From Leucoraja ocellata (taxonomy: Eukaryota): a stretch of 64,000 bases of DNA. Position 1 is the stretch's first letter, and the number at the start of each line of letters is the position of its first letter. A program made the position numbers and the translations under genes. The stretch spans positions 1,178,001 through 1,242,000 of the forward strand of contig JAWMAR010000246.1 of NCBI GenBank assembly GCA_036785375.1, read 5' to 3'. Positions 13,750 to 57,990 of this stretch are shown here, piece by piece. A model generated the notes under the pieces. It saw nothing but the letters and a program-made list of their open reading frames with translations. It ran no database searches and was not told where the DNA came from.

Positions 13750-14589
13750 GGGCGCCACATTGACGGCAGCCTCTGCCTACAGCCTGTTCGTCTTTTCAAT
13801 CTTTTTTTTATTTTTAGTTAATTTATAGTCTGTTTTTAGGGGAAACTTTAACTTTTCTATGTGGGGGAGGGGGGGCAGGGTAAGGGAGAAACTATTTCCC
13901 AGTTGCTTCCTGGCGGGGACACAACTATTCTCCGAGTCGCGTCCTCGCCCCCCCCCTCCTCGCAGCCTACCACCTGGATCCGAGCGGCCTTTCCTGCCGG
14001 GGACCGGGAAGCGAACCAGAGCTACAACAGCGGCGGCGCAGCGCTGAAATCACCATGGAGTGGCCGATCCCTACCTGGATCGCCGTTTTGAGCTCCGGTG
14101 CATTGGGCCGCTGCTCCAATATCGTGGAGCTGCGGTTTGGGAGAGTTCCCAACACAGGCGATGCTGACCGTCCTCGCAGAGTCCTGGGACCCTTGGCCGA
14201 GGGCCACCAGTATTGCATCTCCGCCCAGCGAACTTTGGGAGCTGCGGACTCCAGTAGGAGGGGGCCGAATCTGATGTCCAGACCACTGAGGATGTCCCCC
14301 AGCCCCAACGTCGGACTTACATCACCCCAGCGAGAGGGCCTAAATATCGGGCCGCCCTTAGCAGCGACTGCGGAGGGCTCGGGGAAGACCCGACCACGGG
14401 TGAACATTGGGGAACATTAGAGGAAGAAGACTTTGGTGCCTTCCCGCACAGTGGGAAACTTCAATTCTGCTGTGTGGGGATGTTTTTATGTTGAACTCTA
14501 TCGTGTGTTGTGTTCTTTATTTTTATTGTATGGTAATCACATTTCACTGTGCCATCTGGCACATGTGACAAATAAATGTATATTGTATC
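13750..14589 (+). mobile_element. GC-rich non-coding retroposon (hairpin family copy A)
   Basis: GC/CpG-rich body, gccttcc-hairpin at 14438-14480, tail atttcactgtgcc...tgtgacaaataaa. Confidence 0.7.
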
Positions 14590-14897
14590 TTACATTGATA
14601 AGACACATTTTCAAAGTATGACAGTGCTGCAGAACAATGTGCACAGACTACAACTAAGTACTATTTTCTCGATTTCCTTTATTCAAAGGGACAAAAAATG
14701 CTGGCCTTAACATTTACACAAGCTACAATCAGAAAATGTATGCAATCATAAATTAAACACCTTTGCCCAGTTGGGCAAGAAATGTTTAGAGATAAAAACG
14801 TGAATTTGTAAAAGCTTTAATCACTACATATTTGGCAATGCAGGTTGCATTGCACCAGACAGATTATCACCAAGATTAAAGTATGAAATGTACTGAC

Positions 14898-15025
14898 CTG
14901 CAAACATGGAATATTTCCTTCAGAGAAATCGAATGTGCCCAATATATCCTCTCCAATTTTATAGATGGCTTTGAAAATGCAAAATTTTCCAACTTTCCCC
15001 CTGACATTACTAATGTTATACAAAT
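14898..15025 (-). CDS. RGP1: RGP1 coding exon 6
   Basis: gcag|AT TTG: HLYNISNVRGKVGKFCIFKAIYKIGEDILGTFDFSEGNIPCLQ; donor CAG|gtcagt; 128 nt. Confidence 0.95.
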
Positions 15026-15502
15026 CTGCACAAAATATACAGTGCAATATTAATCAGTTAATTTTCAAAGTTATACAGACAATATTTTTTTTAAATGACA
15101 ATATCTGTATTTACTTGTGAACAGCCTACCGCAATCGACTTTTGAAATTCTGTCCAACGCCATTAAAATTGTCCTAGCCCCAATTTCAGACTTCATTTGG
15201 GCAAATCCTGTCTTTTTCCATAATGATTTTAAAACAAATTAGAATGATGGTTATAAGTAGATAGAGTTGTAAAGATGGCATTTGGTATACATGCCTTCAT
15301 TGGTTGGGGCATTGTGCATACGAGTCGGGAAATCACACAGCAGCTTTGTAACATTCTAGTTAGGCCACCTTGTGAGTATTGTGGGCAGTTCAAGTTGCCT
15401 CATTACAGGAAGATTGTTGAAACTTTGGAGAAGGTGCAGAATATGGCATCAGACACATGACTTGTTTCTGTGCTGTACTTTTCTATGTTCTATGGTCCAA
15501 AT

Positions 15503-18744: not shown

Positions 18745-19168
18745 AATAAAAGTTCAAGTTTGTGTTTATGAGCCAATTAAGGTACATTGAAATTTGAGTT
18801 ACCATACAATCATACTAAGTGAAAAACACACAGCCACATAAAATAAAATTTAACATAAACATCCACCACAGTGGAATCCACAATCCTCACTGTGATGGAA
18901 GGCAATAAAGTTCAGTCCCCTTCCTCCTTTGTTCACCCATGGTCGGGGCTGAACCCTCCGCAATTGCCGCTGCCGACGTCCAAGCCCTCTCATCAGGATG
19001 ATCGAAACTCCGGTGTCGGGATGGATCGGAACACTCCACGGCATGGAGCTCCCGAGTCGGCCTCTTCTTACCGGAGAAGCGGCTTCCCGGTGTTAAAGTC
19101 ACAGGCCCCGCGGTCAGAGCACTTTCGCTGGCAATCCTCGGCAAAGAATCGCCAGCTCCAAGATGGTA
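18745..19168 (-). mobile_element. GC-rich non-coding retroposon (hairpin family copy C)
   Basis: Minus strand gccttccatcacagtgag...cactgtggtggatg at 18860-18903. Confidence 0.7.
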
Positions 19169-19454: not shown

Positions 19455-22360
19455 CTTTGAATAACTTTTTTGCATCAGTCTTCACAGTGGAATACACCAG
19501 CAGCATGCCTGCAATCCTAGAGTCAGGAGGTGGAAGTTGGTGGAGTGGAGATTAGTAAGGAGATGGTGGAGGAAATCTGATAAGTCTGAGGGTGGATAAG
19601 TCACCTGGACCGGATGGCATGCACCCCAGGGTTCTGAAGGACGTGGCCTCAGAGATTATGGATGCATTAGTTGTGATACTTCAAGGATCACTAGAGTTAG
19701 GAGTGGTTCCGGATGATTGGAAAATTGTGAATATCACCCCGCTGTGCAAGAAGGGAGCAAAGCAGAAGAGCGGAAACTATAGGCCGGTTAGCCTGACCGG
19801 TGGTTAGTAAGATTTGAGAGTCAATTATAAAGGATGAGGTCATGCAGTACTTGGAAGTTCATGATAAAATTGGCCAGACAGCATGGTTTTGTGAAGGAAA
19901 GATCTTGCCTTACAATCTGTTGGAGTTCTTTGAGGAAGTTAATAGCAGGACAGGCAGAGGGGAGGCTGTAGATGTTGTTTACCTAGATTTTCAGAAGGCC
20001 TTCGATAAGGTCCCGCACATCAGGCTGCTAGGGAAGATGAGAGCCCATGGTATTGAAGGGAAGGTACTAGCATGGATAGCAAGTTGACTGGATGGTAGCG
20101 TTGCAATAAAATGTGCTTTTTCAGGTTAGCATGGATAGAGTTGACTGGGTGGAAGAATTGCAAAAAAAATGTGCTTTTTCAGGTTGGCTGTCAGTGACTA
20201 GTGGAGTTCCGCAAGAGTCGGTGCTGGGGCCGCTTCTCTTCATGTTGTATATTAATGATTTGGATAAGGAGATTGAAGGCTTTGTGGTCAAGTTTGCAGA
20301 TAATGCTAAGATAGGTGGAGGGTCATGCAGTGTCGAGGAAGCAAGGACTCTGCTGAAGGACTTGGGCAGGATAGGAGGGTGGGCAGAGAAGTGGCAGATG
20401 AAATTCAGTATATCAAAGTGTGGAGTCATGGGTTTTGGTAATAAGAATAAAGGCATAGGTTATTTTCTAAATGGAGAGAGAATCCAGAAATCTAAGGTGC
20501 AAAGGAACTTGGGAGTGCTGGTGCAGGGCGAATCAGTGGTAAAGATGAAATACAAAAACAGAGATGTAATGCTGAGGCTCTATAAGGTGCTGGTCAGGCC
20601 GCATTTGGAGTACTGTGAGCAAATCTGGGTCCCATATCTGAGGAAGGATGTGCTGGCTCTGGAGAGGGTCCAGAGGAGGTTTACAAGCATGATCCAAGGA
20701 ATGAGAGGGTTAGCATATGATGAGCGTTTGACAGCACTGGGCCTCCATTCGCTGGAGTTTAGACTGTTGAGGGGGGACCTCATTGAAACTTACAGAATGA
20801 AAGACATGGATAGTGTGTATGTGGAAAGGATGTTTCCATTGGTGGGAGAGTCTAGTACCAGAGGTCATGGCCTCAAAATTAAATGGCACTTTTAAAAAGG
20901 AGGTGAGGAGGAACTTCTTTAGTCAGAGGGTAGGTCATCTATGCAACTCATTGCCACAGAGGGCAGTGGAGGCCAAGTCAGTGGATATTTCTAAGGCAGA
21001 GATAGACGTTCTTGATTAGAATTGGTGTCAAGGGTTATGGGGAGAAGGCAGGAAAATGGGATTAGGTGGCAGAGATCAGCCATGATTGAATGGCAGAGTA
21101 GACTCAATGGGCCGAATGGCCTAATTCTACTCCAAAACTTGTGAACTTCTGAAATATAACCAAAGAAATTCAAAATAGTTGTGAGATTAACTAACGCATT
21201 TAAGAAATTTGGAGAAGAATTACTTTGTACTAAATGCTATTCCCTTATCATACAAGGACCCAGAGAGGGGGTAGAACAAAGGAAGACCTGGTGCAGGATA
21301 CTTTGTAACTTTGTAAGTGCCCTTTATGTGGCGATTATTTGAATGCAGGGTATTTAGCTGCTGGAACATACTTAACGGTTAAATCATTTGGATGGGTATG
21401 CAGGCAAGAAATTTGTGACAATAAAGTATTCAATTCAATTCAACGTGTCTATACACTATAAATGATTCGAATGTAATCATGTATTGTCTTGCTGCTGACT
21501 GGAAACCACGCAACAAAAGCTTTTCATTGTAACCCGGTACACGTGACAATAAACTAAACTAAACAAGAAAAATACATAGGAAATGAAGTGGTAGTTTTCA
21601 TGATTATATGTGTATTTTGGAACAAGGACAACATAGGGGATTTAGAATCGTTATTTTGAAGTGGGAAATGTAAGCATGCAGGTACAGCAGAAATGAAAGT
21701 AATCGAACAGGTACAGCAGGCAGTGAAGAAAGCGAATGGCATGTTGGCCTTTATAACTAGAGACGTTGAGTATAGGAGCAAAGAGGTCCTTCAACAGTTG
21801 TATGGGCCCTAGTGAGACCACACCTGGAGTATTGTGTGCAGTTTTGGTCCCATAATTTGGTCCCAACATTCGAGGGAGTGCAACGTAGGTTTACAAGGTT
21901 AATTCCCGGGATGGCGGGACTGTCATATGCTGAGAGAATGGAGCAGCTGGGCTTGTACACTCTGGAGTTTAGAAGGATGAGACGGCATCTTATTGAAACA
22001 CATAAGATTATTAAGGGTTTGGAGGCAGACTAGAGGCAGGAAACATGTTTCCGATGTTGGGGAAGTCCAGAACCAGCGGCCACAGTTTAAGAATAAGGGG
22101 TAATCCATTTAGAACGGAGACGAGGAAACACTTTTTCTCAGAGATTTGTGAGTTTGTGGAATTCTCTGCCTCAGAGGATGGTGGAGGCCGGTTCTCTGGA
22201 TACTTTCAAGAGAGCTAGATAGGGCTCTTAAAGATAGCGGAGTCAGGGGATATGGGGAGAAGGCAGGAACGGGGTACTGATTGGGGATGATCAGCCATTG
22301 AATGGCGGTGCTGGCTCAAAGGGCCGAATGGCCTACTCCTGCACCTATTGTCTATTGTCT
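19455..22360 (+). mobile_element. CR1 LINE ORF2 fragments (two elements)
   Basis: [50 protein letters not shown], with stops and frameshifts. Confidence 0.93.
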
Positions 22361-23179: not shown

Positions 23180-24025
23180 TTCTACCACCTCCAACGGGAT
23201 CCCACCACTAGCCACATGTTTCCATCTATACCCCTTTCCCCCTTCCGCAGAGACCATTCCTTCCGCAACTCCTGGCTTCATTCCTTCCCACCCTAACCAC
23301 CTCCTCCCCAGGTGCCTTCCCCTGAAACCACAAAAGATGCAACTCCTCCCTCGACTATGTCCTTTCAGGTTAGGCAGTGGTTCACTTGCACCTCCTCCAA
23401 CCTCATCTACTGTATCCGTTGTTCAAGATGTAGACTCCTATACATCGGCGAGACCAAACGCAGACTGGGCGATCGTTTTGCAGAACACCTTCGCTCAGCC
23501 TACGTGAACCAACCTGATCTTCCTGTTGCTGGACACTTTAATTCTCCTTCCCATTCCTACACAGACCTTTCTGTCCTCGGTCTCCTCCATTGTCAGTGAG
23601 GATAAACGCAAATTGGAGGAACAGCATCTCATATTTCGCTTGAGCAGCTTACAGCCCAGTGGTATTAATATTGATTTCTCTCATTTCAGGTAGCCCTGGC
23701 ATTCCCTCTCGCTCTATCCCTCCCCCACCCAAGTTGCACTAGCTTCTAATTTTCACCCTATAAACAGCTTACAATGGCCTGTTTCCTTTATCATTGTTAC
23801 TTTTTTTGCATATCCTTCATTCATTGTTCTTTATCTCAACATCACCGTCTATATCTACCGTCTATATCTCTCGTTTCCCTTATCCCTAACCAATCTACAG
23901 AAAAGTCTCAACCCGAAATGTCACCCATTCCTTCTCTCCAGAGATGCTGCCTGTCCCACTGAGTTACTCCAGCTTTTTGTGTCTATCTTCGGTTTAAACC
24001 AGCATCTGCAGTTCCTTCTTACACA
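23180..24025 (+). mobile_element. Penelope-like element 3' part (GIY-YIG endonuclease)
   Basis: FTCTSSNLIYCIRCSRC..LYIGETKRRLGDRFAEHLRS followed by the terminal repeat. Confidence 0.9.
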
Positions 24026-25870: not shown

Positions 25871-26540
25871 GTACCTGTCTAACTGTTTCTTAACCATTGG
25901 GATAGTCCCAGCCTCAACTACCTCCTCTGGCAACTTGTTCCATACACCCACCACCCTTTGTGTGAATATGTTACCCCTCAGATGCCTATCTTTCCCCCTT
26001 CACCTTGAACCTATGTCCTCTGGTCCTAGATTCCCCTACTCTGGGCAAGAGATTCTGTGCATCTTCCCGATCTATTCCTCTCATGTTTTTGTACACCCCT
26101 CATCCTCCTGCATTCCAAGGATATTAACCCCAAAACCATCTCCAACTGACAACCCCTCCAAATGTCCTGTTACATTCCCAAAGCTTAGATCAAATAATTC
26201 AGATATTCATATGAAATAAAAGCAGTAATTTTTTTACTGAAATTTAATTCTATTTCCCTCTATATGGATGCTGCCTGACCTACTGAGCATTTCTAACATT
26301 CTTTGTTTTTGTTTTTAGCTTCAAAAATATGGACACTGGTCAGTCAGTGGATTGAGATCACTGTGAGAAAGGGAGACACAACTACAAAGGCATTCGTGGT
26401 CAGAAGGATGGATAAAGTGGACGTTCATCTGGGATTATTAGTGCAGAAGGTAGACACAAAATGCTGGAGTAATTTAGCGCGACAGGCGGCATCTCTGGGG
26501 AGAAGGAATGGGTGAAGTTTCAGGTCGTGACCCTTCTTCT

Positions 26541-26720
26541 AGCCGGGCACGCGGGGGCGCGCGTGAGCCGGGGCGCGCATGAGCCGGGCACGCGGGGGCG
26601 CGCATGAGCCGGGCACGCGGGTGGCGCGCGCATGAGACGGGGCGCGCGTGAGCCGGGCACGCGGGGGCGCGCATGAGCCGGGCACGCGGGTGGCGCGCGC
26701 ATGAGTCGGGGCGCGCGCGC
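26541..26720. repeat. GC-rich minisatellite in RGP1 intron 1
   Basis: Tandem variants of gagccgggcacgcgggggcgcgc(a/g)t and shorter gagccggggcgcgcat units, ending 7 nt from the exon-1 boundary. Confidence 0.9.
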
Positions 26721-26727
26721 CCTTTAC

Positions 26728-26843
26728 CTGCCGGCCGAGGTGGAGTGAGCCGTTACGGGGTTGGTGAAAGCTATGACACATTCCAGCTCCTCGCCCGTCA
26801 GGAACACCGGGCCCCGGAGCAGCTTTGCCACCACCTCGATCAT
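26728..26843 (-). CDS. RGP1: RGP1 (RAB6A-GEF complex partner) coding exon 1
   Basis: ATG at 26843; [38 protein letters not shown] matches the RGP1 N-terminus (MIEVVAELSRGPVFLAGE...); donor AG|gtaaag; 116 nt. Confidence 0.95.
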
Positions 26844-28270: not shown

Positions 28271-28299
28271 CTTGTGTTTTATTGTCATATGCCCTGAAA

Positions 28300-30529: not shown

Positions 30530-32620
30530 CTCAAAGTCAACATCATTGCAAATCAGCATGGATTTACGAAAGGTAAATCATGTCTGACGAATCTTATAGA
30601 ATTTTTCGAGGATGTAACTAGTAGCGTGGATAGGGGAGAACCAGTGGATGTGGTGTATCTGGACTTCCAGAAGGCTTTCGACAAGGTCCCACATAAGAGA
30701 TTAGTATACAAACTTAAAGTACACGGCATTGGGGGTTCAGTATTGATGTGGATAGAGAACTGGCTGGCAAACAGGAAGCAAAGAGTAGGAGTAAACGGGT
30801 CCTTTTCACAATGGCAGGCAGTGACTAGCGGGGTACCGCAAGGCTCAGTGCTGGGACCCCAGCTATTTACAATATATATTAATGATCTGGATGAGGGAAT
30901 TGAAGGCAATATCTCCAAGTTTGCAGATGACACTAAGCTGGGGGGCAGTGTTAGCTGTGAGGAGGATGCTAGGAGACTGCAAGGTGACTTGGATAGGCTG
31001 AGTGAGTGGGCAAATGTTTGGCAGATGCAGTATAATGTGGATAAATTATAGTCCGTCTGTTTTAAAAAAAATAGTCCGTCTGTTTTTTTTCTTTTGTTTT
31101 GTTCCTTGTCATGTTTTAGTTAATTTTGTTTTATTGTTGTGTATGTGGGTGGGGTGGGAGAAACAATGCTTTGGCCTCTTCCTTCGGGGGATGCGACTTT
31201 TTCTTCGGTCGTATCCCCCGTCTCCGTCTGCGCCGAGGCCTAATGGCGGAGCTGGCGGCAACGGAGCTGTAGCAGCGGCAGCAGCGGCGGAGACCTGACT
31301 CGGCCCTGGAGCTGTGGCGGCAGCAGCAGCAGCGGAGACCCGACTCGGCACCGAAGCTGTAGCGGCGGCGGCGGCAGCGGCAGCAGCAGCGGAGACCTGA
31401 CTCGGCACCGAAGCTGTAGTGGCGGCAGCAGCAGGGGAGACCCGACTCGGCACCGAAGCTGTAGTGGCGGCAGCAGCAGGGGAGACCTGACTCGGCCCTG
31501 GAGCTGTGGCGAGGCAGCGGCAGCGGAGACCCGACTCGGCCTCTGAGCTGTGACGAGGCAGCGACCACCCGCGGAGTTTGAACCGTCGCCTCGGCGCAGA
31601 GGAAGAACAAAGAGGGAAGAGCCAGAGACTTTAAGATTTTGCCTTCCACCACAGTGAGGAGGTGTTTGGTGAACTCACTGTGGTGGATGTTAAATTTGTG
31701 TTGACTATGTGTTTTGTCATTTTTTTTAATTATATGTATGACTGCAGGGAAACAGAATTTCGTTCAGACCGAAAGGTCTGAATGACAATAAACAAATCTA
31801 ATCTAATCTAATCTAATCTAAATGTGAGGTTATCCATTTTGGTGGCAAAAACAGGAAAGCAGACTATTATCTAAATGGTGGCCGATTAGGAAAAGGGGAG
31901 ATGCAGCGAGACCTGGGTGTCATAGTACACCTGTCATTGAAAGTAGGCATGCAAGTGCAGCAGGCAGTGAAGAAAGCGAATGGTATGTTAGCTTTCATAG
32001 CAAAAGGATTTGAGTATAGGAGCAGGGAGGTTCTACTGCAGTTGTACAGGGTCTTGGTGAGACCACACCTGGAGTATTGCGTACAGTTTTGGTCTCCAAA
32101 TCTGAGGAAGGACATTATTGCCATAGAGGGAGTGCAGAGAAGGTTCACCAGACTGATTCCTGGGATGTCAGGACTGTCTTATGAAGAAAGACTGGATACT
32201 TGGTTTATACTCTCTAGAATTTAGGAGATTGTGAGGGGATCTTATAGAAACTTACAAAATTCTTAAGGGGTTGGACAGGCTAGATGCAGGAAGATTGCTC
32301 CCGATGTTGGGGAAGTCAAGGGGTCACAGCTTAAGGATAAGGGGGAAATCCTTTAAAACCGAGATGAGAAGAACTTTTTTCACACGGAGAGTGGTGAATC
32401 TCTGGAACTCTCTGCCGCAGAGGGTAGTCGAGGCCAGTTCATTGGCTATATTTAAGAGGGAGTTAGATGTGGCCCTTGTGGCTAAGGGGATCAGAGGGTA
32501 TGGAGAGAAGGCAGGTACGGGATGCTGAGTTGGATGATCAGCCATGATCATATTGAATGGCGGTGCAGGCCCGAAGGGCCGAATGGCCTACTCCTGCACC
32601 TAATTTCTATGTTTCTATAA
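30530..32620 (+). mobile_element. young CR1 LINE 3' part, split by an insertion at 31047-31818
   Basis: [41 protein letters not shown]; reading resumes at CEVIHF after the insertion. Confidence 0.95.
31047..31818 (+). mobile_element. GC-rich non-coding retroposon (hairpin family copy B) with internal minisatellite
   Basis: TSD taaat; hairpin 31645-31687; tail aatttcgttcagaccgaaaggtctgaatgacaataaa(aatct)n. Confidence 0.85.
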
Positions 32621-34974
32621 TTGGAACATAGGCAGCAAGTGTATGCAGTGATAGCTTATGCTGACAAAAATCGGGGCAGCAACTAAAAATTGCCCTGCAG
32701 GTCAACTATATCTAGACAATAAGCTATCCTTAAAACACATGATTTCTGTTGCAATCTCAAATCAGATTATTGTTATGTTATCAACTTAAGGTGTTCATTG
32801 TATTAATGTCAAAAAGGCAGCTTAATGTCATCAAAAACCCTCACCAGCCTAGCCACACTTTCATCTTGCTACTACCATCAAGAGGAAGATACAGGAGCCT
32901 GAAAACCATGACCTCCAGATTCAAGAAGAGCTTTTTACCAACAACCACTAGACCTTTGAACACTGTGCTACACCAAACCCAGCTTAATCTCAAAAAGTAT
33001 GTCCTACCATGGACGTTGTTGTAGTTGCACTATCTACTTTGGTGTTCCATTATTATGATCCGGTTACTGAGGATTACTGATTATTACTTTACTGTATTAT
33101 TAATCTATTTGTGCATTATGATTGGTTTACTGTATTTTAACATTGTGTTTTTTACCTGCTTTTAACTATTTATACTGTTCCATCAGGGACTGGATTGTTT
33201 TTTTTTAGTGTTATTATGTGTGAAGTGTTTTTAAATTTCATGTGCGATGCTCCGCTATTCACTGGGAAACGTCTTTTCATTTTGCACTGTACAACTGTTG
33301 CTTGCAAGATGACAATAAAGGTTGATTGATTGATTGATTATTGCTTTAACGGGCCCAGAAAGCAGAAACAAATTAACATTTATTGTTTTGTGGATACACG
33401 TGACAATGAAACACACGACTCTTTAACAGCAGAAGGCGTAATGGGTCTTCATTTAATCTTAAAAGTGAACTACAGTTAATTGGAATCAAAATATATATTT
33501 CAATATAAAGAGGATAATAGGAGAGTTATTAACAAGAGCTGGGAAATTTACTAATAATTAATTGTTATTCAAGAAATTATGTAACTAAACTCTAGTTTAT
33601 TGGCTAATTCTGTGCTAAATCCATTTGAAAATCTTCCAGTGCTTACAGGAACATTTTAAACAATTGTTAAACACTCCAACAGTAGATAAAAGATGAATGG
33701 AAGTAATAATGTCCACCTCGTATTTATTTAAGAACAATAAGTGCTATAACAATACCAGTTCACTGCTGATTATTTTATTTATTTTGTAGATAGCACAGGA
33801 AATAAACTATATCAACAGATCAAAGGTCAAATAAAATGTTATATATTATTATTGTTTTAAATTAATATTAAGCGTTAATATTAAGCGTTCACACAGAGAG
33901 TGGTGAATCTCTGGAATTCCCTGCCACAGAAGGTAGGTGAGGCCAGTTCATTGGCTATATTTAAGAGGGAGTTAGATGTGGCCCTTGTGGCTAAAGGGAT
34001 CAGGGGGTATGGAGAGAAGGCAGGTACAGGATACTGAGTTGGTTGATCAGCCATGATCATATTGAGTGGCGGTGCAGGCTCGAAGGGCCGAATGGCCTAC
34101 TCCTGCACCTATTTTCTACGTTTCTATGTTATACTCAATCTCAAAGTCGAATCCACATCAAACCTATGGCCAAGAAAGCACACCAACACCTCGGATAGAC
34201 ACAAAATGCTGGAGTAACTCAGTGGGACAGGCAGCACCTCTGGAGAGAAGGAATGGGTGCCGATTTGGGTGGAGTTCTTCAGACTTCCTTCTTACACACG
34301 CCTTCTTCCTTCCTACACACACACCAACACCTCTAATTTCTTAAAAAGTTTAGGAAGTTCACATGTCCTCAAAAAGCTTTCACCAACTTCTACAGATGTG
34401 CCGTAGAAAGCATTTTATTGAGATGCATCACAACATGGTTTGGGAACAGCTCCTTCCAAGACCACAAGAAATTGCAGAGAGTTGTGGACGTAGACCATAC
34501 CACACAAACCAACCTCCCTTCTATTGACTCCATCTACATCAGGCTACCTCGGCAAGGGCACCAGCATAATCAAGGTCCAGTCTCTTCCCGGTCATTCCCC
34601 TTCTCCATCAGGCAAGACGTGCAGACATTTGAAAACACATACCTCCAGATCTGTTCAGTTCAGTTTATTGTCATGTGTATCAAAGTGAAAACAGTGAAAA
34701 GCTTTTTCTTGCGTGCTAACCAGTCAGCAGAAAGACAATACATGATTGCAATCAATCCATTTACAGTGTATCGATACATGATAAGGGAATAATGTTTAGT
34801 GCCAGGTAAAGCTAGTCAAGGATAGTCTGAGGGACATCAAAGAGGTAGTTCAGCACTGCTCTCTGGTTGTGGTAGGGTGATTCAGTTGCCAGATAAAGGT
34901 ACAGTTTCTTCCCAGCTGTTATCTGGCAACTGGACTGTCTTCCCACCAGCTAGAGTACAGTGCTGATTTCCCAT

Positions 34975-35650
34975 ATCTGGGAGTCCACATCTCTGAGGAT
35001 ATGACATGGGCATCACACGCCTCAGCACTCGTGAGTAAGGCAAGGCAGCGCCTTTACCACCTCAGGCAATTGAGGAAATTCAGAGTGTCTCCGAGGATCC
35101 TCCAGTGCTTCTACACAGCGGCGGTGGAAAGCATCTTGTCCGGGAACATTACCATCTGGTTTGGGAATTGCTCTGCCAAGGACAAGAAGGCTCTGCAGAG
35201 AGTAGTGCGTTCGGCCGAACGCACTATGGGAACTTCACTCACCCCCCTGCAGGAACTATACAACAGGAGGTGCAACTCCAGAGCAAACAAAATCATGGGG
35301 GACCCCTTCCACCCCTGCAACGGACTGTTCCAGCTGCTACGGTCAGGCAAACGCCTCCGTTGCCATGCGGTGAGAACGGAGAGGTTGAGAAGGAGTTTCT
35401 TCCCAGAGGCAATTCGAACTGTAAACGCCTATCTCACCAGGGACTCACTCTACAGAACGCTTTTCCTTCCATTATTTTTCCTTCCATAATTTATTATGTA
35501 AAAGAATATGTGTGGTATGATTGTGTTTATAAATTGTTTGGTTGTTTTGTTGTTTGTCTTTTGCACAAAAGTCCGCGAGCATTACCACTTTCATTTCACT
35601 GCACATCTCGTATGTGTATGTGACAAATAAACTTGACTTGACTTGACTTG
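34975..35650 (+). mobile_element. young Rex1/Babar-like LINE 3' fragment inserted in an older relative (~34340-35810)
   Basis: Open 162-aa ORF KARQRLYHLRQLRKF...ESILSGNITIWFG...SFFPEAIR; (gactt)n tail. Confidence 0.85.
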
Positions 35651-35859
35651 ATCTACCTTATTGGAGACGTTTGAACTATCTTTAATCAAACTTTATCTTG
35701 CACTAAATGTTGTACCCTTTATCTTTCATCTGTGGATAGCTTGATTGTAATCATGTACAGACTTGTCTTTGGATAGCATGCATGACAAAAGCCTTTCACT
35801 GCACTTCAAGCTTGTATTTTTTCATCTTGTTTCTGCTGTGGCCCTGAACCTACCCATGT

Positions 35860-44715: not shown

Positions 44716-45149
44716 GTCTACCTTCGATTTTCCAGCATCTGTAGTTCCTTCTTAAATATATTAACGTTCATGTCATTTATATATATCACAAACACAAGCA
44801 GTAGATAGAAATGTTCAGTGAACTTTTGTAATTTTGTCGGTGCCAAAACATGGCAACATTTTGTGTACTGCCCAGATGGGGCCTGCTATATGATTTTACC
44901 TGGTCGTATGCAAAACAAAGCATTTCACTGTACCTAAATACATGTCACAATAAAATATCATTCAATCAGGTGACATTTTGGGTCAGAACCCTTCTTCAGA
45001 CTGAATATTTACTTTTGTTGGATTTCTCAGCATTTTCAATCAGGCAAATGCAAATTGAGGGACAATAAGTAAGAGATTATAACTATCAACCACCTGGTCC
45101 ACAAAGCACACTTAACTTGCTACATTTCATGGGTCTAGATATTTGTATT

Positions 45150-46495: not shown

Positions 46496-47113
46496 GGCAA
46501 ATGCGGCCTAACCAAAGTCTTTTTGAGTTGCATCATTTCGATTGACTAACATTTGTAATTCGGAACAGGGTCAGTTTCTTGGCCGAATCGTCCCTCGCAC
46601 CGAGGGTCCAACAAAAGGGTGTAAATTTTTGCGCATTTGGCATGGAAATTGAAGTGGGCTATTCATCCCTTCAAGGATGTTCTGCTATTCCACGAAGGAT
46701 CAAATATATTATTTTATGTCGATGTCCTTTTAGAGCCTAAAATGTAGTCAATAATTATGATTTTAAAGCGGTACTTTTTCCCCTCGAAAGCTTTTCCCAC
46801 CCAGCTGGTAGGATGATAATAAAACCAAGCGAGCGTGCTATGTTTACCTAGTTAAGACTAGTTTGTTTGGATAAGGATTAAAAAGCTAAAGAGAGATTAT
46901 TGAAGATGTGATTGATTGATTGGGGGGACGTGGCAATTGAAACGAAACTCGGATAAAGTTTACGACTTCTGTATAAATATTGCAACGTGAACTGTAACAT
47001 TTGTACATATTAAGCCATTACAGTGTCCCGCCGCCGTTATTTAACAGCTGAGCCACTATTAGGTTCTGCCCCTATTTGCAACAGTGGCTTTTTTTTAAAT
47101 TGAGCTAACTTAC

Positions 47114-47287
47114 TGTCCGTAATTCCAGTGAACGGTATGACCGCTTCATGGCTTCGAAATTTTCGGTCTTCCGCCTGTTTGTTAAATTGATTAAAACGTC
47201 TCAAAGAGGATCTGTGAGTTTTCTCTGTGTGTTTCTGAGCAGCGGATTCCAGAGTGTCTTTATCCTCACAATGTTGACCTTCACAGC
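47114..47287 (-). CDS. TDGF1: EGF-CFC coding exon 3
   Basis: ttcag|GC TGT: GCEGQHCEDK...SLRRFNQFNKQAEDRKFRSHEAVIPFTGITD, resembling the fish Oep N-terminal region (GCEG.EC...PFVGLT); donor A|gtaagt; 174 nt. Confidence 0.88.
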
Positions 47288-47380
47288 CTGAAACCGACCA
47301 TAGATAAACGGTGGGTATTACAAGATGTCACGAGAAATAGAGATGACTAGAACCGGCCCAGCTTCACTTAAATCACTCAC

Positions 47381-47430
47381 CGGCTTCAGTTCCCGCAGTT
47401 TGTAAGATGAAGATCACCGCAGAGAGGAAC
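47381..47430 (-). CDS. TDGF1: EGF-CFC coding exon 2 (signal peptide core)
   Basis: tttttag|G TTC...: FLSAVIFILQTAGTEA; donor G|gtgagt; 50 nt. Confidence 0.8.
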
Positions 47431-47513
47431 CTAAAAAACATATCAGATAGTGGTGAACACTGCGCCCAAACCCTACCCGAGGATCTTCCCCGTCATCCTT
47501 TCAGCAAACTTAC

Positions 47514-47536
47514 CGAGAAGCTCTTCCGAATTTCAT
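47514..47536 (-). CDS. TDGF1: EGF-CFC (Cripto/tdgf1/oep-like) coding exon 1
   Basis: ATG AAA TTC GGA AGA GCT TCT CG|gtaagt (MKFGRASR); phase matches the next exon; paralogue assignment uncertain. Confidence 0.75.
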
Positions 47537-49849
47537 TTTCTTTGCCAACCAAAGATTATAATTCATTCGTGCGTTGAAATCCAATGGATCCTCCGTCAGA
47601 GTAACCGGTGACAGACACTACACTGTTCGTGCGCTTTCTGACCCTTGTTAAACTGCAACGATTAACAGAAGTTCTCACCTCCTGCCTCCCGAACTCCCGA
47701 GTACACTACCTACCCTCAAAGCATGTCCCGCCTCCACATTCAAATCAGCATCTCCCCATCTCCCTTCGACTTTTACGTTTTTTCATCTGCCTTCATTTTA
47801 AATCTCAATATTCGCACCAACAGTTAGTAACAGTTTTACAGTGTTGCCCAGTTACAGCAATTCCCCACATTAACACATGAGAGCCAAACCATTAAGAAGT
47901 CCATTCACTTTAACGCCCTTCGTTTCTTATTTTCTCAAAACAAGGACGTGATCTTTTTTAGTTTACATTGATATTTATTTTAGATTGGGTTTTTTTGCGA
48001 ATTCCTGCCCTTCAAGTAGTATCTGAGGCCGCATCCTTGATCCCTGTTAACCGGTTTTGCTATTCGTGGCTAAAGGCGGCAGGTATCATCAATTGAGAAG
48101 AGATTTTACCGGTCCACGAAACAGCCCGATCTGATCAACTGTGCGGTGATTGATTTGAGATGGTTGTTGGATCCTTGTTATAGCAAACACAAATGGTCAT
48201 CTTAGCAGATCTCGCGGTAAAGTGTACCACGTTAAGCTACGTTAATTCCTTGTCAAATGTGCCACCATAACTCAATCTTTCCTTCCCAGATTCATTCATT
48301 CTTCCTTTCATAGATGTTCTCCCCTCTTTCTCTTTAAGACAATTTTATTTCCCATCGCCACCAAGTAAATATTCTTGGAGTGTGAGCCTGAATGGACAGT
48401 ATCAGCACTCCGAAACCACTATTCTCCCAGTCTTCATCCAGTGGCCAAGGAAAAGATATTTACAGCAGGGGGGCACTTGGATAGCAGTTGGAGGTGAGAA
48501 TCCTGGCTCTTTTCTACTTGTTAGCCCTGGGTCATCAAGGCCAAATGTCATGACGTGCGAGATCGGAAAACTCAGAGAAGATCCATGCTTCTTGCTCAGG
48601 TCTAATATCAAGTCGGTTTCTGGCCATGTAACTAATGTCTTAATCTAGACTTTAATTGTCTGAATATCTTAATTAGACATTTAGGTAACAATCTATTATG
48701 ATAAATTAAATGGAATGCCCTTTGGAACCTGGAAACGCAGTTTTATGTTTGGATTTAGAATTTCCTAAGTCATTAATAAATAGATTGTAAAAATCGAATG
48801 TGACTATGATACAAAAGCAAATAACATATTGATTATAATTGATTATAATTTATAGTTGACTTTGTTATGTCCCCAGAGGTAGTGTGGAATGCAGAAGAAA
48901 TGTATGCTTTAACCCTATACATTAAATCACAAAGTAATGACATTGATAAAATGCTATATACCATATATATTTTTAATATATTATTTTTCTTGGAGTGAGC
49001 AATATATAGCAAGCAATATATTATCACTGGCCCATAGTTATACCACATGGGGAGCTATAAATCATTAACTCCTCTATTGATTATCTTATCCTCACTCAAC
49101 ACAGTTGGGAAGAAAATGTGTTCTCGGAGGAGGTTTACATTCCACTGAATGCTATCTTGTTTATCGCAAAGTACTTGCTGGTTAGATAAAGTACATGGGA
49201 TGAATGCCATTCAGAGCTCTCATCCAAATGAGGCTTATTTAAATATTTTGGCTGAGGAAACATTTGTTCCACCTTTATTTGGGATTTAACTGCTCATTGA
49301 AGTAGAACTTTAAAGATGGTAATATTTGCACGTAAATTTAAATTATAACAGTCTGCACCAATAATTTGGAATTACAGACTATTAAAAAAAACAAAGAACT
49401 GCAGATGCCGGTTTTCAAAAAAATAGGTGAAGTGCTGGAGTAACTCAGTGGGTCGGGCAGCATCTCTAGAGAACATGTATAGGTGACATTTTATGTCGGG
49501 ACCCTTCTTCACACTTACATTGCGTATTTACTGGATCAAAATACCCCAAGGCACCACGGAAGGATTAAGTAAATGTGAATCACATTCACATTAACAGAGA
49601 CTATAGCAAGAGGCATGAGTTTGGTATTAAGTAGGAGAGAGGCACTGAGATGGGGAGATTCACAAAGGGATCATCCTTGTTCATAAGGTCATAAGTGATA
49701 GGAGTTAGGCCATTTGGCCCATCTAGTCTATGCCATTCAATCATGGCAGATCTATCTCTCCCTCCTTACCCCATTCTCTGCCTGTTGATAGAGTAATAAT
49801 TATTCCCAGGAAATAAACTTTATTTTAAAAATAAAAAAATAAAATATTG

Positions 49850-53010: not shown

Positions 53011-54447
53011 TATGTTGGTCAGATTTCTGATTCTCAGTTGATGTTCAATGACTCATGACTGAGGTCCAGTTGTTGATATTTGGAGACGACAGTATCAAGC
53101 TCTGCCTTGATATAATCTGGAGAGACTCAAGTTCAGGCTTATACCTGAACAATCTCTTGCCACTGGAAGACGCCTACTGACCCCTATATCAAACACACCT
53201 TCAGCACACTCTAGAGGTTATCACTCTCTGCTAAAGAAGGAAGAAGAGAAACAAAACTGTAGAATGACAATAAGTAAAGAAAACAAGTCATTAAGTGTTG
53301 GCTGCTAACAACACATTTCTTACTACCTTGAATATTTTGACTATAAATGATTAGCCTACTTTCCTGAATCCAGAAAGATTTTTTCAATTCCTTTACCAAT
53401 GATTATCACATTGGAAAAGCAGTTAATCACATTTTGTGACTGTGGTATGTTTGTTTAGTTAAGGGTGAGATTGTTTAGTTAGGGATTTAAAAACCATGAC
53501 AAGATAATGGGTAATGATCCGATTGATCTGAATAGATCAATTCTGATAACCTGAAGCTAAAGTTAAAATCTCAGGCCAAGTTTACCACAATTATCTGAAG
53601 TGTTTAAAAAAAATCTTCAGCATCAATCTGCAATCTTAACTTGGATTGATTTTGTAAAATATTATATTCAACTATTGTTTTAGATCATAATTTTAGATCA
53701 TGCTAATTGGTCTCTTTGTTAACTGAGTTTTGTGAACCTCAGGGGTCTTAGCTCATTTAAATATGGAATGTGTTAGACGAAAGCCAATCCAATTTTCACC
53801 CGAATATCCGTTTTCCAGCAGGAGGGAACTGGATCAGGATTAGAGATGGGATTCTGGGTTGATTTCTTTATCTCCCTTAGTCCAAGAAGAATAAGGTTAA
53901 TTGTTGCTTCCATTGCTGCATTGGGTTGATTTAAGCAACTGAGGGAGATCAGATGTAAACCAAGTTACACAATACTTCAGTCAGTGTTATCAGAGTAATT
54001 ATTTTCTCTTTCAATTCTTGCTTTTTTTTCACTAAATTTGTTGTATTTTCTTCTTCTGATAGTTTTCATAGTAGATATGTAATCCCCCAAATTAGCAGTT
54101 TGGTACCTATTATTACAGCACAATGGATGTTATATCAATTCTAATATGATGACTATACTGTATCACAAATTATGTTAATTGTCATACATAGGCTTTTGCA
54201 GATGCATTGCACTGGCTGATATTGGGAATATTAGGCAATTATAACACCAGTTTTCATTCAACACTGATTTGATGCTATTGTTAATTCAAAGTACAAAGCT
54301 TCAAATAATGCTCTCTATTAAATACATGTACCAGGAAACATCCAACAACAGGAGGAAAACACCACCAACCTATTTAAAGGAATTGTCAACTTCTGTGTAA
54401 ATAAATTGTGCTGTACTTAAGACCACCTGACAGCATCATACCCTTGT

Positions 54448-54675
54448 GTAAGAAGGAACTGCAGATGCTGGTTTAAACTGAAGATAGACACAAAAAGCTG
54501 GAGTAACTCAGTGGGACAGGCAGCATCTCTGGAGAGAAGGAATGGGTGACATTTCGTGTCGAGACGTTTCAGGTCGAGTCTGAAGAAGGGTCTCGACCTG
54601 AAATGTCACCCATTCCTCTTCTCCAGAGATGCTGCCTGTCCCGTTGAGTTACTCCAGCTTTTTGTGTATATCTTC
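54448..54675. mobile_element. fold-back Penelope terminal repeat with TSD
   Basis: Inverted arms flanked by direct repeat cagcatcatacccttgt. Confidence 0.88.
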
Positions 54676-56029
54676 AGCATCATACCCTTGTCAGTTTGTG
54701 GTGGCATTCACTGGAATCAACCTTCTTCCAGGTTGAATCCATTGAATGTCACCATAGTCTGACAAAGGTATGATGCTGTCCGGTGATCTTAAGTACAACA
54801 TGACGTATTCACCCTCTGAGTACAGTGGGACTGGGACAATCAGAGATGGGCACTCAGAGCAGAGAAGAAACACAGGAGACTGCAGATATTGGAATCTGAA
54901 ACAAAAATATCCAGTTTATGTTTTGGCACCTAGAGCAGGACAAGCTGACAGATGAGAGGGAAGTGGAAAGAGAAGATGGGGAAGGCTCTGAGCAGGAGGT
55001 CATATCTGCTCAATAAGCTCTAAAAATGACTATTTTACCTGAACTTCAGTGAGAAACACTATGTTTGCTGGGGTTGGAGGTAACTACATTTCAGTGAGGA
55101 CAGCCTCAGACATGTTTTTTGCATTATCTATTCATTATCAGGACGTTGATATCAATCGCCTAGTTGACTCCCAGCAGTATGGCCCATTAACAAGTTAGAT
55201 TATTTCCTAGTCAACCACATTGTTAAATCTGGAGCCACAAAGTCAGATCAACAAAACAGATGGGTTTTCTTTTAACTTAAATCAGGCAATTGAGGTTATC
55301 AGGTAATCATAGAGAGACCTTTATATGAAGCATGGAAAAGGGTCCTTTGGCCCACTGAGTCCACACCAACCACCCATTTTACACTCATCTTACCCTTACT
55401 CATTTTATGCTCCCCACATTCCCATCAACCCTCCACAGATTCATTCATCTATACATAGATCCATCACTCATCCATACATGAACAACAATTTACAGTGGCC
55501 AATTAACATACTAACATGAACCTTTTTGAGATGTTGCATGATCCAGAGCACTCAAGGAAATCCATGAGGTCACAGGGAGGTCAAGCAAATGCCACACAGA
55601 ACACAGGGTGTTGTAGCTGCGAGGTAGCTGCTGACTGAAGTATCCATCAACGAAGAAAATGTGTTGAAAACCAAGTCCCTAAATATAGAAATAAGGAACT
55701 GCAGTTGCTGGATTATCAAGAAAACACACTAAATGTTGCAACTCAGTGGGTCAGGCAGCATCCTTGGGGACCATGGATGCGATGTTTCTGGTCGGGATCC
55801 TTCTCGAGATGATGGAAATATAGTGAAGGTGCAGATGTGTTTCTCGCAGGTTATTGGCAATGTTGAAGGATTTTTTGACAGCTTCTGATTGAACCCTTTA
55901 TAGTTGCCTTCATCTTCCTGGCCTTGACTGTTCCTCACTGCCCATCCTTCATTGGACAGTACCTGTGTGTAATTGCCAGGGACTGAGTCACTTGAATCCC
56001 AATGTCATTTTGTTTAATGTGCAGTGTTT

Positions 56030-57990
56030 AATCCCAGTGCCAAAGAAAAGCAAGCCCTCATGCCTAAATTACTTTCGTCCAGTGGCCTTGACCTCCACCA
56101 TCATGAAATGGTTTGAGAGGCTAGCAATGGAATACAGTCTACCCAGTGGCCTTGACCCACTGTAGTTCACCGACCGCCACAATAGATCCACGGACGATGC
56201 CATCATCCTAGCCCTACACTCATCCCTAGAATACATGGATAAGATATTCACCCACGTCAGGCTCCTATTCACAATCACAATAATACTTTAATAGCCAAGT
56301 ATGATTTGCAACACACTAGCAATTTCATTTGCCATGTCAGTCATACAAATATAAAGCAATGGAACACACAAAATACATTTTAACATAAACATCCACCACA
56401 GTGCTCCTCCACATTCCTCACTGTGATGGAAGGCGAAAAAAAGTTCAAATTTCTTCCCTTCTTTGTTCTCCCGTGGTTGAGGGCCTCGAGCCTTCCATTG
56501 ACGGGACGATCTTAACTCACGTAGCTGGCAGAGTTTATACCCTCCCCATCGGGGCAATTAGTTCCTGCATCGCAGGGATGTTAGCTCCACCGTGCCGGCG
56601 ATTGGATCCTGGTGTAGAGCTAACAACCTTTCTCTCAATGTCAGCATGACAAAGCAGATAGTGATCAACTTCAGGAAGCGAAGTGGTACACTTACCCATG
56701 TTTGCATTGACGGTGCTAAAGTAGAGATGGTTGAAAACCTCAAATTCTTAGGAGTGAATATCACCAACAACTTCTCCTGGACCACCCATATTGAAGCACA
56801 CCGATGCCTTTATTTCCTTAGAAGACTTAGGAAGTTTGGCATGTCCCCTACAACTCTCACCAACCTCTACAGACACACCATAGAAAGCATTTTATCGAGA
56901 TGCATCACATCTTGGTTTGGGAACAACATCCAAGACTGCAAAAAAATTGCAGTGAATTGTGGACACAACCTCCCTTCCATCTATGATGGTCCCTTTACCT
57001 CCCCCCTCGACTCCGTTCAAGGACCCAAGCAATCGTTCCAGGTGCGACAGAGGTTTACCTGCATCTCTTCCAACCTCATCTATTGCGTCCGCTGCTCTAG
57101 ATGTCAGCAGATCTATATCGGTGAGACCAAGCGGAGGTTGGGCGATCGTTTCGCCGAACACCTCCGCTCGGTCCGCAATAACCAAGCTGACCTCCCGGTG
57201 GCTCAGCACTTCAACTCCCCCTCCCACTCCGTCTCCGACCTCTCTGTCCTGGGTCTCCTCCATGGCCACAGCGAGCAGCACCGGAAATTGGAGGAACAGC
57301 ACCTCATATTCCGTTTGGGGAGTCTGCATCCCGGGGGCATGAACATCGAATTCTCCCAATTTTGTTAGTCCTTGCAGTCTCCTCCCCCTCCTCAGCCCCC
57401 CTGCTGTCTCCTCCCATCCCCCAGCCATCGGGCTCCTCCTCCTCCTTTTCCCTTTCTTGTCCCCGCCCACCCCCGTCCCCGATCAGTCTGAAGAAGGGTT
57501 TTGGCCCGAAACGTTGCCTATTTCCTTCGCTCCATAGATGCTGCTGCACCCGCTGAGTTTCTCCAGCTTTTTTGTGTAACCTCCCTTCCATCTACTCCAT
57601 TTAAATCTAACACTGCCTCTGCAAGGCCAATCAAGGATGAGTCACATCCTGGCCATTTCCTCTTCTCCCCACTCCCATCAGGCAGAAGGTATAGAAGTGT
57701 GAAAATGCACCACCACCAGATTCGGGAACAGTTTCTTCCCAGCTGATATCAGGCAACTGAATCATCCTACCACAAGCAGAGAGCAGTGCTGAACTACTAT
57801 CTACCTCTTTGATGACCCTCGGACAGTCCTTGATCAGACTTCGTTGGCTTTACCTTCCACTAAACGTTATTCCCTTATCGTGTATCTATACACTGTAAAT
57901 GGATCGATTGTAATCACGTATTGTCTTTCTGCTGACTGTTAGCAGACAACAAAAGCTTTTCACTGTACCTCGGTACACGTTACAATAAAC
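56030..57990 (+). mobile_element. Rex1/Babar-like LINE with nested hairpin-family copy D (~56270-56600, -) and Penelope fragment (56984-57577)
   Basis: [32 protein letters not shown] motifs; Penelope bounded by 17-bp TSD aacctcccttccatcta. Confidence 0.88.

Follow-up and report, generated by a model that had tools for sequence, protein, structure and literature searches.

The 64,000-nt window analysed here, the RGP1 locus of Leucoraja ocellata, contains four copies (A–D) of an ORF-less family about 800 nt long that is probably made up of non-autonomous retrotransposons copied in trans by a Rex1 reverse transcriptase (RT): no copy has an ORF, the 3′ tails are of Rex1 type, and the one full-length copy also starts with a Rex1-type 5′ end. 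Their likely anatomy is a LINE head, a GC-rich body, a hairpin core and a Rex1 tail, with likely transcription by RNA polymerase II (Pol II). An earlier note had placed four elements here, and all were recovered where it put them (Table 1), a density of about one copy per 16 kb. Alignment and nhmmer both unite them in one family of repeats; A matches B with E = 1e-24 over 380 nt, and its match to C spans nearly the whole length. Their bodies had been called dissimilar, which holds for D, whose body aligns with no other, but not for A–B and A–C, which are partly homologous. With the core removed, A and B agree in 148 of 240 columns (score 93, against a maximum of 40 in 200 shuffles), and the 5′ parts of A and C in 164 of 286 (64 against a maximum of 45, partly through low-complexity sequence).

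Table 1. Copies, component parts and related features, in window coordinates
Feature	Positions	Strand	Description
Copy A	13748..14589	+	Apparently full length, 842 nt; antisense in RGP1 intron
A head	13748..13776	+	GGCGC, then GGCAGCCT six to seven bases on; a motif with which Rex1 LINEs (and some fish L2) typically begin
A T-rich tract	13783..13860	+	24% GC with runs of up to eight T, which would stop Pol III; Rex1 5′UTRs have such a tract behind the head
A body	13861..14400	+	GC-rich, 64% GC; 3′ half homologous to B body
A 5′ hairpin	13912..13949	+	Homologous to C 5′ hairpin; two mismatches in A
A core	14402..14485	+	GAACA, purine run, CTTT, GCCTTCC hairpin (stem 14442–14479)
A tail	14541..14589	+	Rex1-type: stem-loop, GACAAATAAA, decayed 5-nt repeat
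Copy B	18751..19168 (start approximate)	-	5′-truncated; sense in RGP1 intron, within old CR1-type fragment
B hairpin	18862..18903	-	GCCTTCC hairpin
B tail	18751..18793	-	Decayed, no significant fold
Copy C	31047..31821	+	Near full length, 775 nt; inside RT region of CR1-type LINE
C 5′ hairpin	31185..31220	+	13 pairs, z −5.7 (100-nt window)
C body	31256..31551	+	45-nt GC-rich tandem repeat, 6.3 copies
C hairpin	31641..31689	+	GCCTTCC hairpin, 14 pairs
C tail	31757..31821	+	Rex1-type: perfect 11-pair stem, GAAA loop, GACAATAAA, (AATCT)5.4
C left target-site duplication	31042..31046	+	TAAAT, 5 bp
C right target-site duplication	31819..31823	+	Overlaps tail repeat
Copy D	56271..56609 (approximate)	-	5′-truncated; antisense within Rex1-type RT fragment
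D hairpin	56390..56434	-	GCCTTCC hairpin, stem same as B
D tail	56271..56323	-	Third type; stem-plus-signal layout kept
Element E	61608..61960	-	Possible sister: GC-rich body, AACAAAG...ACTTT, A-type tail, without GCCTTCC hairpin
Truncated Rex1-type LINE	34920..35651	+	ORF end and 3′UTR, ending in an A-type tail; illustrates a possible partner lineage
Rex1-type LINE 3′ end	1..315	+	C-type tail; ORF end recognised by eye

All four copies share a hairpin core. GCCTTCC occurs 12 times in the window, and four of the 12 occurrences run into a stem of at least 11 pairs closing at (G)ATG, a combination absent from 100 block-wise dinucleotide shuffles of the window (mean 0, maximum 0). As the earlier note had described, all four copies keep GCCTTCC, stem and GATG near the 3′ end, GATG lying 114–136 nt from the ends used, which take in a few flanking bases. 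TCC of the motif and GA of GATG are themselves stem bases, and the long stem has a pair probability of about 0.9 in every copy. Searches with a profile and with a covariance model of the core brought up no fifth GCCTTCC copy; across 133 kb, model R1 recovered the four copies on both strands and otherwise nothing above chance level. The earlier note had the stems differ yet remain paired: 47 of 48 cells are paired, the B and D stems are identical, C is off by one base, and a two-sided change (A-U to C-G) occurs in A only. 'Covarying' is unsupported, since with four copies the test is not significant (one double change in 12 pairs; observed values reached by 114 of 500 column shuffles). Selection on the hairpin draws its support from arm sequence instead, with identities of 0.92 and 0.88 in the arms, 0.49 in the loop, 0.54 far upstream and 0.52 in the tail (0.42–0.58 when shuffled). 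In a post hoc simulation, six random substitutions kept all 12 pairs in 0.1% of cases.

Other identities for the core were considered. A conserved three-way junction around the hairpin looks good in MFE folds, but is well supported in B only, with C preferring another fold, and we therefore keep it as a lead. SECIS, IRE, hammerhead and HDV-like ribozyme were rejected for lack of an Rfam match; a pre-miRNA was rejected likewise and because the stem falls below the length that a pre-miRNA requires. The pyrimidine run may be complementary to the 3′ end of 18S rRNA, but such pairing is disfavoured, since half of the run is already paired. Scanning GTDB contigs for the motif gave no matches.

The tails point to Rex1. 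A, C and D, together with eight LINE ends, fold as ATT, a stem, a CAA(A)TAAA-like signal and a short repeat (three further LINE ends lie outside the tail search pattern), and the stem-plus-AATAAA layout of Rex1 ends is present in all four tails, decayed in B. The Rex1-type LINE of the window is assigned to Rex1 through its EN–RT–PF09004 relatives, whose N-terminus matches LeuEri_Rex1-6 by eye. At least three tail types occur within the family. C and D had been thought more degenerate than A and B, which the tail-hairpin z-scores contradict (C −5.7, A −3.3, D 0.0, B +0.5). Matching tails with LINE 3′ ends succeeded for A (identity 0.77–0.78) and C (0.74), which resemble one another at 0.58; B and D have no close LINE tail (best 0.65). 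The tail of element E is 0.83 identical to that of A. Judged by these sequences, mobilisation by several Rex1 lineages is plausible. Stringent LINEs require a 3′ stem-loop plus repeat (PMC5135761). Signs of retroposition are the 5-bp target duplication of C, recognised because both flanks match one other CR1 copy (13250–13169) with a 5-nt overlap, and the 5′ truncation of B and D with 3′ ends retained. The other three copies show no target duplication of at least 5 bp, and at the D junction the interrupted Rex1-type RT lacks about 110 codons.

At the other end, the head of A was compared by eye with published consensus 5′ ends. Among the 18 of 19 places listed, GGCAGCCT stands behind GGCGC within the first ~35 nt in at least six Rex1 consensus sequences, and ATGGCGCC is 5′-terminal in all listed matches (22 of 50; 17 Rex1 and five L2). 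ATGG(C/T)G opens 12 of the 19 Rex1 consensus sequences of the little skate, and 12 of the 13 that reach at least 2,869 nt. The A head has one additional G and lacks the leading AAG, which belongs to the YY1-type motif (PMC4871433). A near-full-length LINE in locus L006 matches it and then becomes T-rich. This LINE-type head, found also in some L2 lineages, is seen in A only; C starts ~30 nt past the motif. When A was aligned with the 5′ regions of four LINEs, 32–88 of 3,000 shuffles equalled or exceeded the observed score, and other parts of the window score equally; against all 15 loci its best match lies outside the head, with a score reached by 26 of 300 shuffles. nhmmer of the four copies against these loci gave just two weak matches, both in the C repeat region. 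GCCTTCCA agrees with one Rex1 head over 8 nt, no more than chance would give. Some 600 nt of body have no match among the window LINEs, the 15 loci and 120 proteins. CpG o/e in the A body is 0.73, against 0.41 in the window, and the 5′ hairpin of A and C shows one two-sided change (T-A in C, C-G in A). GGAGCT occurs nine times in the bodies where about one is expected, a post hoc count owed partly to the C tandem repeat.

No credible coding trace was found in the elements by Pfam or BLASTP, in agreement with the earlier note. Pfam, applied to 285 N-free stop-to-stop frames of at least 62 aa with the 28200–29300 microsatellite excluded, gave one weak element match below the cut-off (RSN1_7TM in D, E = 0.004), and BLASTP against 120 Rex-type proteins gave none; a 178-aa frame in A was rejected as a gene, having no homologue among 213 candidates. 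Pol III boxes are not evident, as the earlier note had said: the elements contain no properly placed A/B box pair, only weak one-mismatch words resembling these boxes, and no tRNA gene was found in them. T runs lie 45–105 nt into A and 13–82 nt into C, so close to the 5′ end that they argue against Pol III. Rfam 15 covariance models, at E up to 1, yielded five matches in the window and no credible one, that inside A being to a Streptomyces sRNA (E = 0.89). The missing ORF match, the missing tRNA and the tail layout support retroposons that are non-coding, not derived from tRNA and tailed like Rex1. 'SINE-like' is not supported as worded: both A and C run past 700 nt and show no Pol III features, and their starts lie at or just behind a LINE 5′ terminus. 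SINEBase defines SINEs as non-autonomous elements shorter than 700 bp, with an internal Pol III promoter (tRNA, 5S or 7SL head) and a tail that a partner LINE shares (PMC3531059); A (842 nt) and C (775 nt) are too long and have no Pol III head, and share with that definition the non-autonomous state and the partner tail.

We propose that Pol II would transcribe the elements, the head taken from a LINE and the CpG-rich body together acting as an internal promoter. A Rex1 protein would then settle on the terminal stem-loop and use the short 3′ repeat to start target-primed reverse transcription, with early stops common (B and D). Tails may have been exchanged between Rex1 lineages when the enzyme changed templates within the AT-rich spacer that follows the hairpin, a step that we marginally favour. 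The GCCTTCC hairpin RNA might conceivably serve as a tail-independent docking site that aids capture of the Rex1 protein, although we lean against this; its distance from the priming end is fixed at ~110–135 nt, and docking would account for a hairpin that outlasts turnover of body and tail.

The same family could keep its arms as a sequence-specific site, which in DNA would be a palindrome for a transcription factor and in RNA a signal for stability or export. Eight of 12 pairs are invariant, with one changed on both sides, and invariant unpaired GCCT, TGTT and GAACA flank the stem; yet the loop is free in length (14–19 nt) and sequence (identity 0.49), every change in A preserves pairing, G-U included, as suits RNA, and the hairpin holds its 114–136 nt from the 3′ end, which makes such a site rather unlikely. 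It is quite possible, if short of probable, that tails were never swapped and that one ancestral tail diverged with its subfamilies, Rex1 proteins reading shape alone. The lead-in TGTATG...GGNAA...AATT precedes the tail in all four copies, one tail fold is common to A, C and D, and the identity differences rest on ~35 nt. Against this, the outer-stem bases of A and C are those of two different LINE end types of the window, and A and C tails are less alike (0.58) than each is to LINE ends (0.74–0.78). Recent shuffling, in which older bodies and tails received a young core by recombination or conversion, would suit the identical stems of B and D on unalignable bodies, and module shuffling is common in SINEs (PMC5786205, PMC11481361); block conversion does not give the sharp drop within the module, from ~0.9 in the arms to 0.49 in the loop, and we judge such shuffling improbable.

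It is highly improbable that the copies descend from a coding LINE outside the sample whose UTR is long and GC-rich, whether as its 5′-truncated 3′UTRs or as what decay has left of it. The comparison covered 13 Rex-type 3′UTRs (seven from the window, six from the loci) and the first 400 nt of published consensus sequences, and short body words resemble by eye the GC-rich 5′ part of LeuEri_Rex1-15 (one 11-mer). However, none of the 13 UTRs (130–361 nt, 25–42% GC) has the hairpin (best score 22, against 39–71 among copies), and no RT ORF lies upstream in the same orientation, so that these are not the ordinary coding-LINE 3′UTRs that the earlier note had allowed for. A, which has no upstream RT ORF, begins with a LINE 5′-terminal motif, C begins just behind that motif and sits in a CR1 between the two copies of its target duplication, D interrupts a Rex1 fragment of opposite orientation, and coding traces are lacking throughout. 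To a Pol III SINE whose small-RNA head was lost from all four copies we give hardly any credence. RSg-1 is of the Rex1 type. tRNA SINEs with RSg-1 tails are on record (PMC3747384), B and D are truncated and box-like words are present; the multiple T4–T8 runs near the 5′ ends of A and C, the length above 700 nt and the absence of a tRNA or Rfam head all tell against it.

In the publications consulted, the ORF-less bipartite design is described only for other LINE groups. Full-text literature search with five 16-nt core words found no paper, and keyword search found no description of such a family in the text available to it; the core words are absent from the first 400 nt of the consensus sequences of PMC13343379, in whose available text 'non-autonomous' does not occur. 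Two long core words (11 and 14 nt) are absent from the supplement of Kojima 2018, where an 8-mer appears twice in unrelated RTE alignments, and the CORE 7-mer that Kojima names is absent from the elements. If copying by Rex1 is correct, the range of ORF-less bipartite parasites would come to include Rex1, and this in the vertebrates that carry most of it (batoids have the highest coverage, with 6.6% of the little-skate genome; PMC13343379). The family would also be a short, testable case of an internal domain surviving tail exchange, the domain being a simple hairpin; the role of conserved domains in SINE superfamilies is still unclear (PMC11481361). Skate and ray annotations may count the tails as Rex1 LINE and leave the CpG-rich bodies unclassified. 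It seems doubtful, though worth stating, that batoids hold an old and abundant superfamily, so far undescribed, of Pol II-transcribed, protein-less Rex1 parasites whose conserved RNA module lets them switch freely among Rex1 lineages; copy number would be on the order of 10^5 if the window density is typical, and the superfamily, a Pol II counterpart of the conserved-domain SINE superfamilies, would be the first case of a bipartite non-autonomous LINE in a clade other than RTE, Ingi, Vingi or R2. The A–D family does not indicate new chemistry or a new element class.

SVA elements contain a GC-rich tandem repeat, are likely transcribed by Pol II and are mobilised by L1, with poly(A); the tandem repeat of C and likely Pol II transcription make them an analogy only. 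CORE, V, Deu and Meta SINEs similarly keep an internal module while LINE-partner tails vary (PMC11481361, PMC5499810), whereas A–D have no tRNA, 5S or 7SL head, exceed 700 nt and carry T runs hostile to Pol III; known chondrichthyan SINEs (HE1, SacSINE1) end in L2 or CR1 tails (PMC3747384). Bird GC-rich-head retroposons also have a GC-rich non-coding body of unknown origin (PMC5786205, PMC7245038), but use RTE and have that body in front of their LINE sequences, whereas in A it is flanked by LINE-type sequence on both sides. With Rex1/Babar LINEs the family shares, at the 5′ end, the terminal motif with its T-rich tract and, at the 3′ end, a stem-loop followed by an AATAAA-like signal and a short tandem repeat (PMC13343379, PMC6274825), and differs in lacking an EN–RT ORF and in having the GC-rich body and GCCTTCC hairpin. 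Bipartite ORF-less non-autonomous LINEs are listed by Kojima 2018, in its available text, for RTE, Ingi, Vingi and R2 only (PMC5786205). RIME/Ingi, NARTc/L1Tc, the Vingi-1_EE derivatives, Bov-A, RTE-N and the R2 derivatives join LINE 5′ and 3′ ends without an ORF, as here, and are likewise probably transcribed by Pol II and mobilised in trans, as anatomy suggests for A–D (PMC5786205). Within our family a LINE 5′ start is seen in A only, on modest pairwise statistics, and a LINE 3′ end is clear in A and C, given by layout in D and decayed in B. The partner, Rex1, stands outside the four listed clades (PMC5786205), and A–D are set apart by a middle of 600 nt with no detectable LINE remnant, by conserved hairpins of their own and by at least three tail types.

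The four elements A–D lie where the earlier note placed them and form a real family. Of the 12 GCCTTCC words in the window, exactly four, one per copy, open a stem of at least 11 pairs that closes at GATG, a combination found in 0 of 100 shuffled windows. This hairpin sits in a conserved core, preceded by a GC-rich body and followed by a tail (a 3'-terminal stem-loop, an AATAAA-like signal and a short repeat). The bodies had been described as dissimilar, which holds for D, whose short body aligns with none, and not for A–B and A–C, which are homologous even with the core removed (A–B, 148/240 columns aligned, score 93 against a maximum of 40 in 200 shuffles; A–C, 164/286 columns aligned, score 64 against a shuffle maximum of 45). 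A second hairpin, close to the 5' end, is also common to A and C, and one of its pairs is changed on both sides. A–D contain no ORF or other coding trace, no tRNA is found in them and Rfam returns no credible match, which bears out their description as non-coding and not tRNA-derived. At four copies per 64 kb, a 2.2 Gb genome would hold ~10^5, an estimate with the wide error of a single gene-containing window. Three further copies possibly represent a sister group; the GCCTTCC hairpin is missing from all three, and after the ACTTT stretch stands a short word that by eye resembles the head of LeuEri_Rex1-15 and HypSab_Rex1-6.

Positions of family copies and of other features in the window
Feature	Position (nt)	Strand	Remark
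Copy A	13748–14589	+	RGP1 intron; head 13748–13776
Copy B	about 18751–19168	-	RGP1 intron; end ~160 nt from RGP1 exon; AATAAA lost
Copy C	31047–31821	+	
Copy D	about 56271–56609	-	
Possible sister copy E	61608–61960	-	AACAAAG...ACTTT as in A–D; A-type tail
Possible sister copy	21256–21444	+	AACAAAG...ACTTT as in A–D
Possible sister copy	44791–44966	+	A-type tail
RGP1, 8 coding exons found	26843 to 7215	-	GC-rich tandem repeat in intron 1
CpG island, RGP1	26400–27100		Rex1-type 3' fragment immediately upstream
LINE fragment	34977–35432		Highest identity (88%) to a relative in Leucoraja erinacea
Mosaic, adjoining copy D	58193–60093		Three pieces repeating 53870–54694, 56677–56994 and 57435–58196 at 99.5–100% identity
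Penelope-linked short repeat, examples	23893–23983, 54480–54668, 62989–63174		
MITE-like element, terminal inverted repeats	9063–9361		
MITE-like element, terminal inverted repeats	62892–63517		Penelope-type pair inserted within
CpG-enriched, apparently non-repetitive	46500–48250		Possibly promoter region of neighbouring gene
Run of 154 N	28991–29144		Inside long GA microsatellite

One RGP1 exon matches a stingray (Hemitrygon) cluster at 98% identity and shark proteins at 87–93%. Together with the Leucoraja erinacea relative of the LINE fragment at 34977–35432, this makes a batoid, probably a skate, the likely host of this vertebrate DNA. The remainder of the window is mostly repeats, with fragments of CR1-type RT, of GIY-YIG (Penelope-type) elements and of a third LINE group. 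In full length, relatives of this group are arranged as endonuclease, RT, PF09004; we call the group Rex1 because the N-terminus of these relatives matches, by eye, the published LeuEri_Rex1-6 consensus. A short repeat, present in about 20 copies, is tied to the GIY-YIG fragments, many copies forming inverted pairs, one of which accounts for a sub-threshold Rfam match to MIR2118. These repeats carry what we take to be words of a hammerhead core, and Rfam reports no hammerhead match in them. The mosaic beside copy D arose either by duplication in the very recent past or as an artefact of assembly.

Copy C interrupts a CR1 RT. The sequences on either side of C both match a single other CR1 copy, on which they overlap by 5 nt; this reveals a target duplication, TAAAT, partly coinciding with the (AATCT)n tail repeat. 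Copy B sits inside an old CR1-type fragment, and D is found in antisense orientation inside a Rex1 RT that lacks ~110 codons at the junction; a search for target duplications of at least 5 bp at A, B and D found none. Both B and D have lost their 5' part and kept the 3' end, the expected outcome of reverse transcription starting at the tail.

The tails resemble those of LINEs. Those of A, C and D share a layout with eight LINE ends (all six from the window and three of six from bacterial-assembly loci, less one weakly folding window end), namely ATT, a stem of 9–14 pairs, a CAA(A)TAAA-like signal and a 4–6 nt repeat. C and D had been ranked as more degenerate than A and B, and this order does not stand: C is perfect, A good, and B and D weak (fold z of -5.7, -3.3, +0.5 and 0.0, respectively). 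The nearest LINE ends to the A tail are 57982 (0.78), 35622 (0.77) and L001 (0.75), and to the C tail 285 (0.74) and L002 (0.73), while A and C tails are 0.58 identical to one another; none of the ends compared pairs clearly with B or D (best 0.65). These sequence comparisons favour the view that tails were acquired from more than one Rex1 lineage, and it is slightly more likely than not that they were exchanged, through template switches in the AT-rich spacer. Nor do the elements appear to be ordinary 3'UTRs of coding LINEs, as the earlier note had allowed they might prove: 0/13 Rex-type 3'UTRs carry the hairpin core, and these measure 130–361 nt at 25–42% GC, the body of A 540 nt at 64% GC.

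Fish LINEs of the Rex1 kind have a characteristic motif at their start, and copy A begins with it; C starts ~30 nt further in. Scanning GTDB with a Rex-type alignment yielded 15 loci, four of which reach the LINE 5' region (L001, L003, L004 and L006). The first 30 nt of A match L006, which then becomes T-rich; the score of the A head against LINE 5' regions is reached by 32–88 of 3,000 shuffles, the rest of the window scores equally high, and over all 15 loci the head match is not the best hit. Taken alone, the L006 match would be modest evidence. Stronger evidence comes from the consensus table of PMC13343379, compared by eye over the first 400 nt of each sequence: ATGG(C/T)G starts 12/19 little-skate Rex1 consensus sequences, GGCAGCCT follows GGCGC within the first ~35 nt in six Rex1 consensus sequences among the 18 of 19 places listed, and ATGGCGCC is 5'-terminal in all 22 listed of 50 places (17 Rex1, 5 L2). 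From these consensus 5' ends the A head is therefore a Rex1/L2-type LINE start, with the choice of Rex1 over L2 decided by the tail. One word within the LINE head motif has been reported as a site for YY1 (PMC4871433, in excerpt). A's copy of the motif has one extra G and lacks AAG. Runs of 4–8 T, which terminate Pol III transcripts, occur in both A and C within their first 110 nt, and A–D show no Pol III features. Separately, the GTDB contigs that carry Rex1 LINEs of fish type, some of them close to full length and with tails intact (L001, L003, L004, L006, L002, L009–L014, L005, L007 and L015), are probably host or foreign DNA in bacterial records.

Pairing of the GCCTTCC stem is conserved, with a pair probability of ~0.9 in each copy. 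It had been called covarying, a claim we abandon, the observed values being reached by 114/500 shuffles: of 12 pairs, 8 are invariant, 3 show one-sided changes and 1 a two-sided change, and all stem changes but one fall in copy A. An internal template switch within A could mimic compensatory change. A's hairpin loop and 3' arm (14453–14479) resemble its 5' region 13840–13866 at chance level (22/27, E=0.61). Identity among copies is 0.92 and 0.88 in the arms, 0.49 in the loop, 0.54 at 60–120 nt upstream and 0.52 in the tails (shuffled baselines 0.42–0.58), a profile that points to constraint on the hairpin. In post hoc simulations, six random substitutions keep all 12 pairs in 0.1% of cases and four in 1%; with five, three of them transversions, all 12 are kept in none and 11 in 3%. 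MFE folds place a three-way junction around the hairpin in 4/4 copies, well supported in B only. What such constraint would serve can be read in two ways. The hairpin may, tentatively, be a tail-independent docking site for borrowed Rex1 protein; the main alternative makes it a site recognized by its sequence, in DNA or RNA, that serves transcription, stability or export.

For the family as a whole, we consider it probable that A–D are ORF-less Rex1 parasites. Pol II transcription would start from the LINE-type head and CpG-rich body (CpG o/e 0.73–0.95 in the four bodies versus 0.41 in the window), and Rex1 protein would recognize the terminal stem-loop and repeat in trans. Such recognition by LINE protein is demonstrated for eel and zebrafish L2 (PMC5135761, in excerpt).

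The earlier note was a correct lead to a real family, whose label we change from 'SINE-like with covarying hairpin' to that of an ORF-less Rex1 parasite bearing a LINE-type head and a hairpin conserved in sequence. Against the SINEBase definition, as excerpted, the family fails on length and promoter. We found no description of the family in the open-access text searched, and an abundant skate repeat may well already have an entry in a library such as Dfam or Repbase. According to excerpts, the named chondrichthyan SINEs HE1, SacSINE1 and SINE2-1_CM (PMC3747384), and likewise CmiSINE (PMC5499810), have CR1 or L2 tails. The family bears a resemblance to conserved-domain SINE superfamilies, which likewise draw on several LINE partners (excerpt of PMC11481361), but A–D lack a small-RNA head. 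Its fit to the bipartite ORF-less derivatives of LINEs is partial, no LINE source being detected for the middle part, yet it works like them; the excerpt of Kojima 2018 (PMC5786205) reports such derivatives from RTE, Ingi, Vingi and R2 only, and expects them to be Pol II transcripts.
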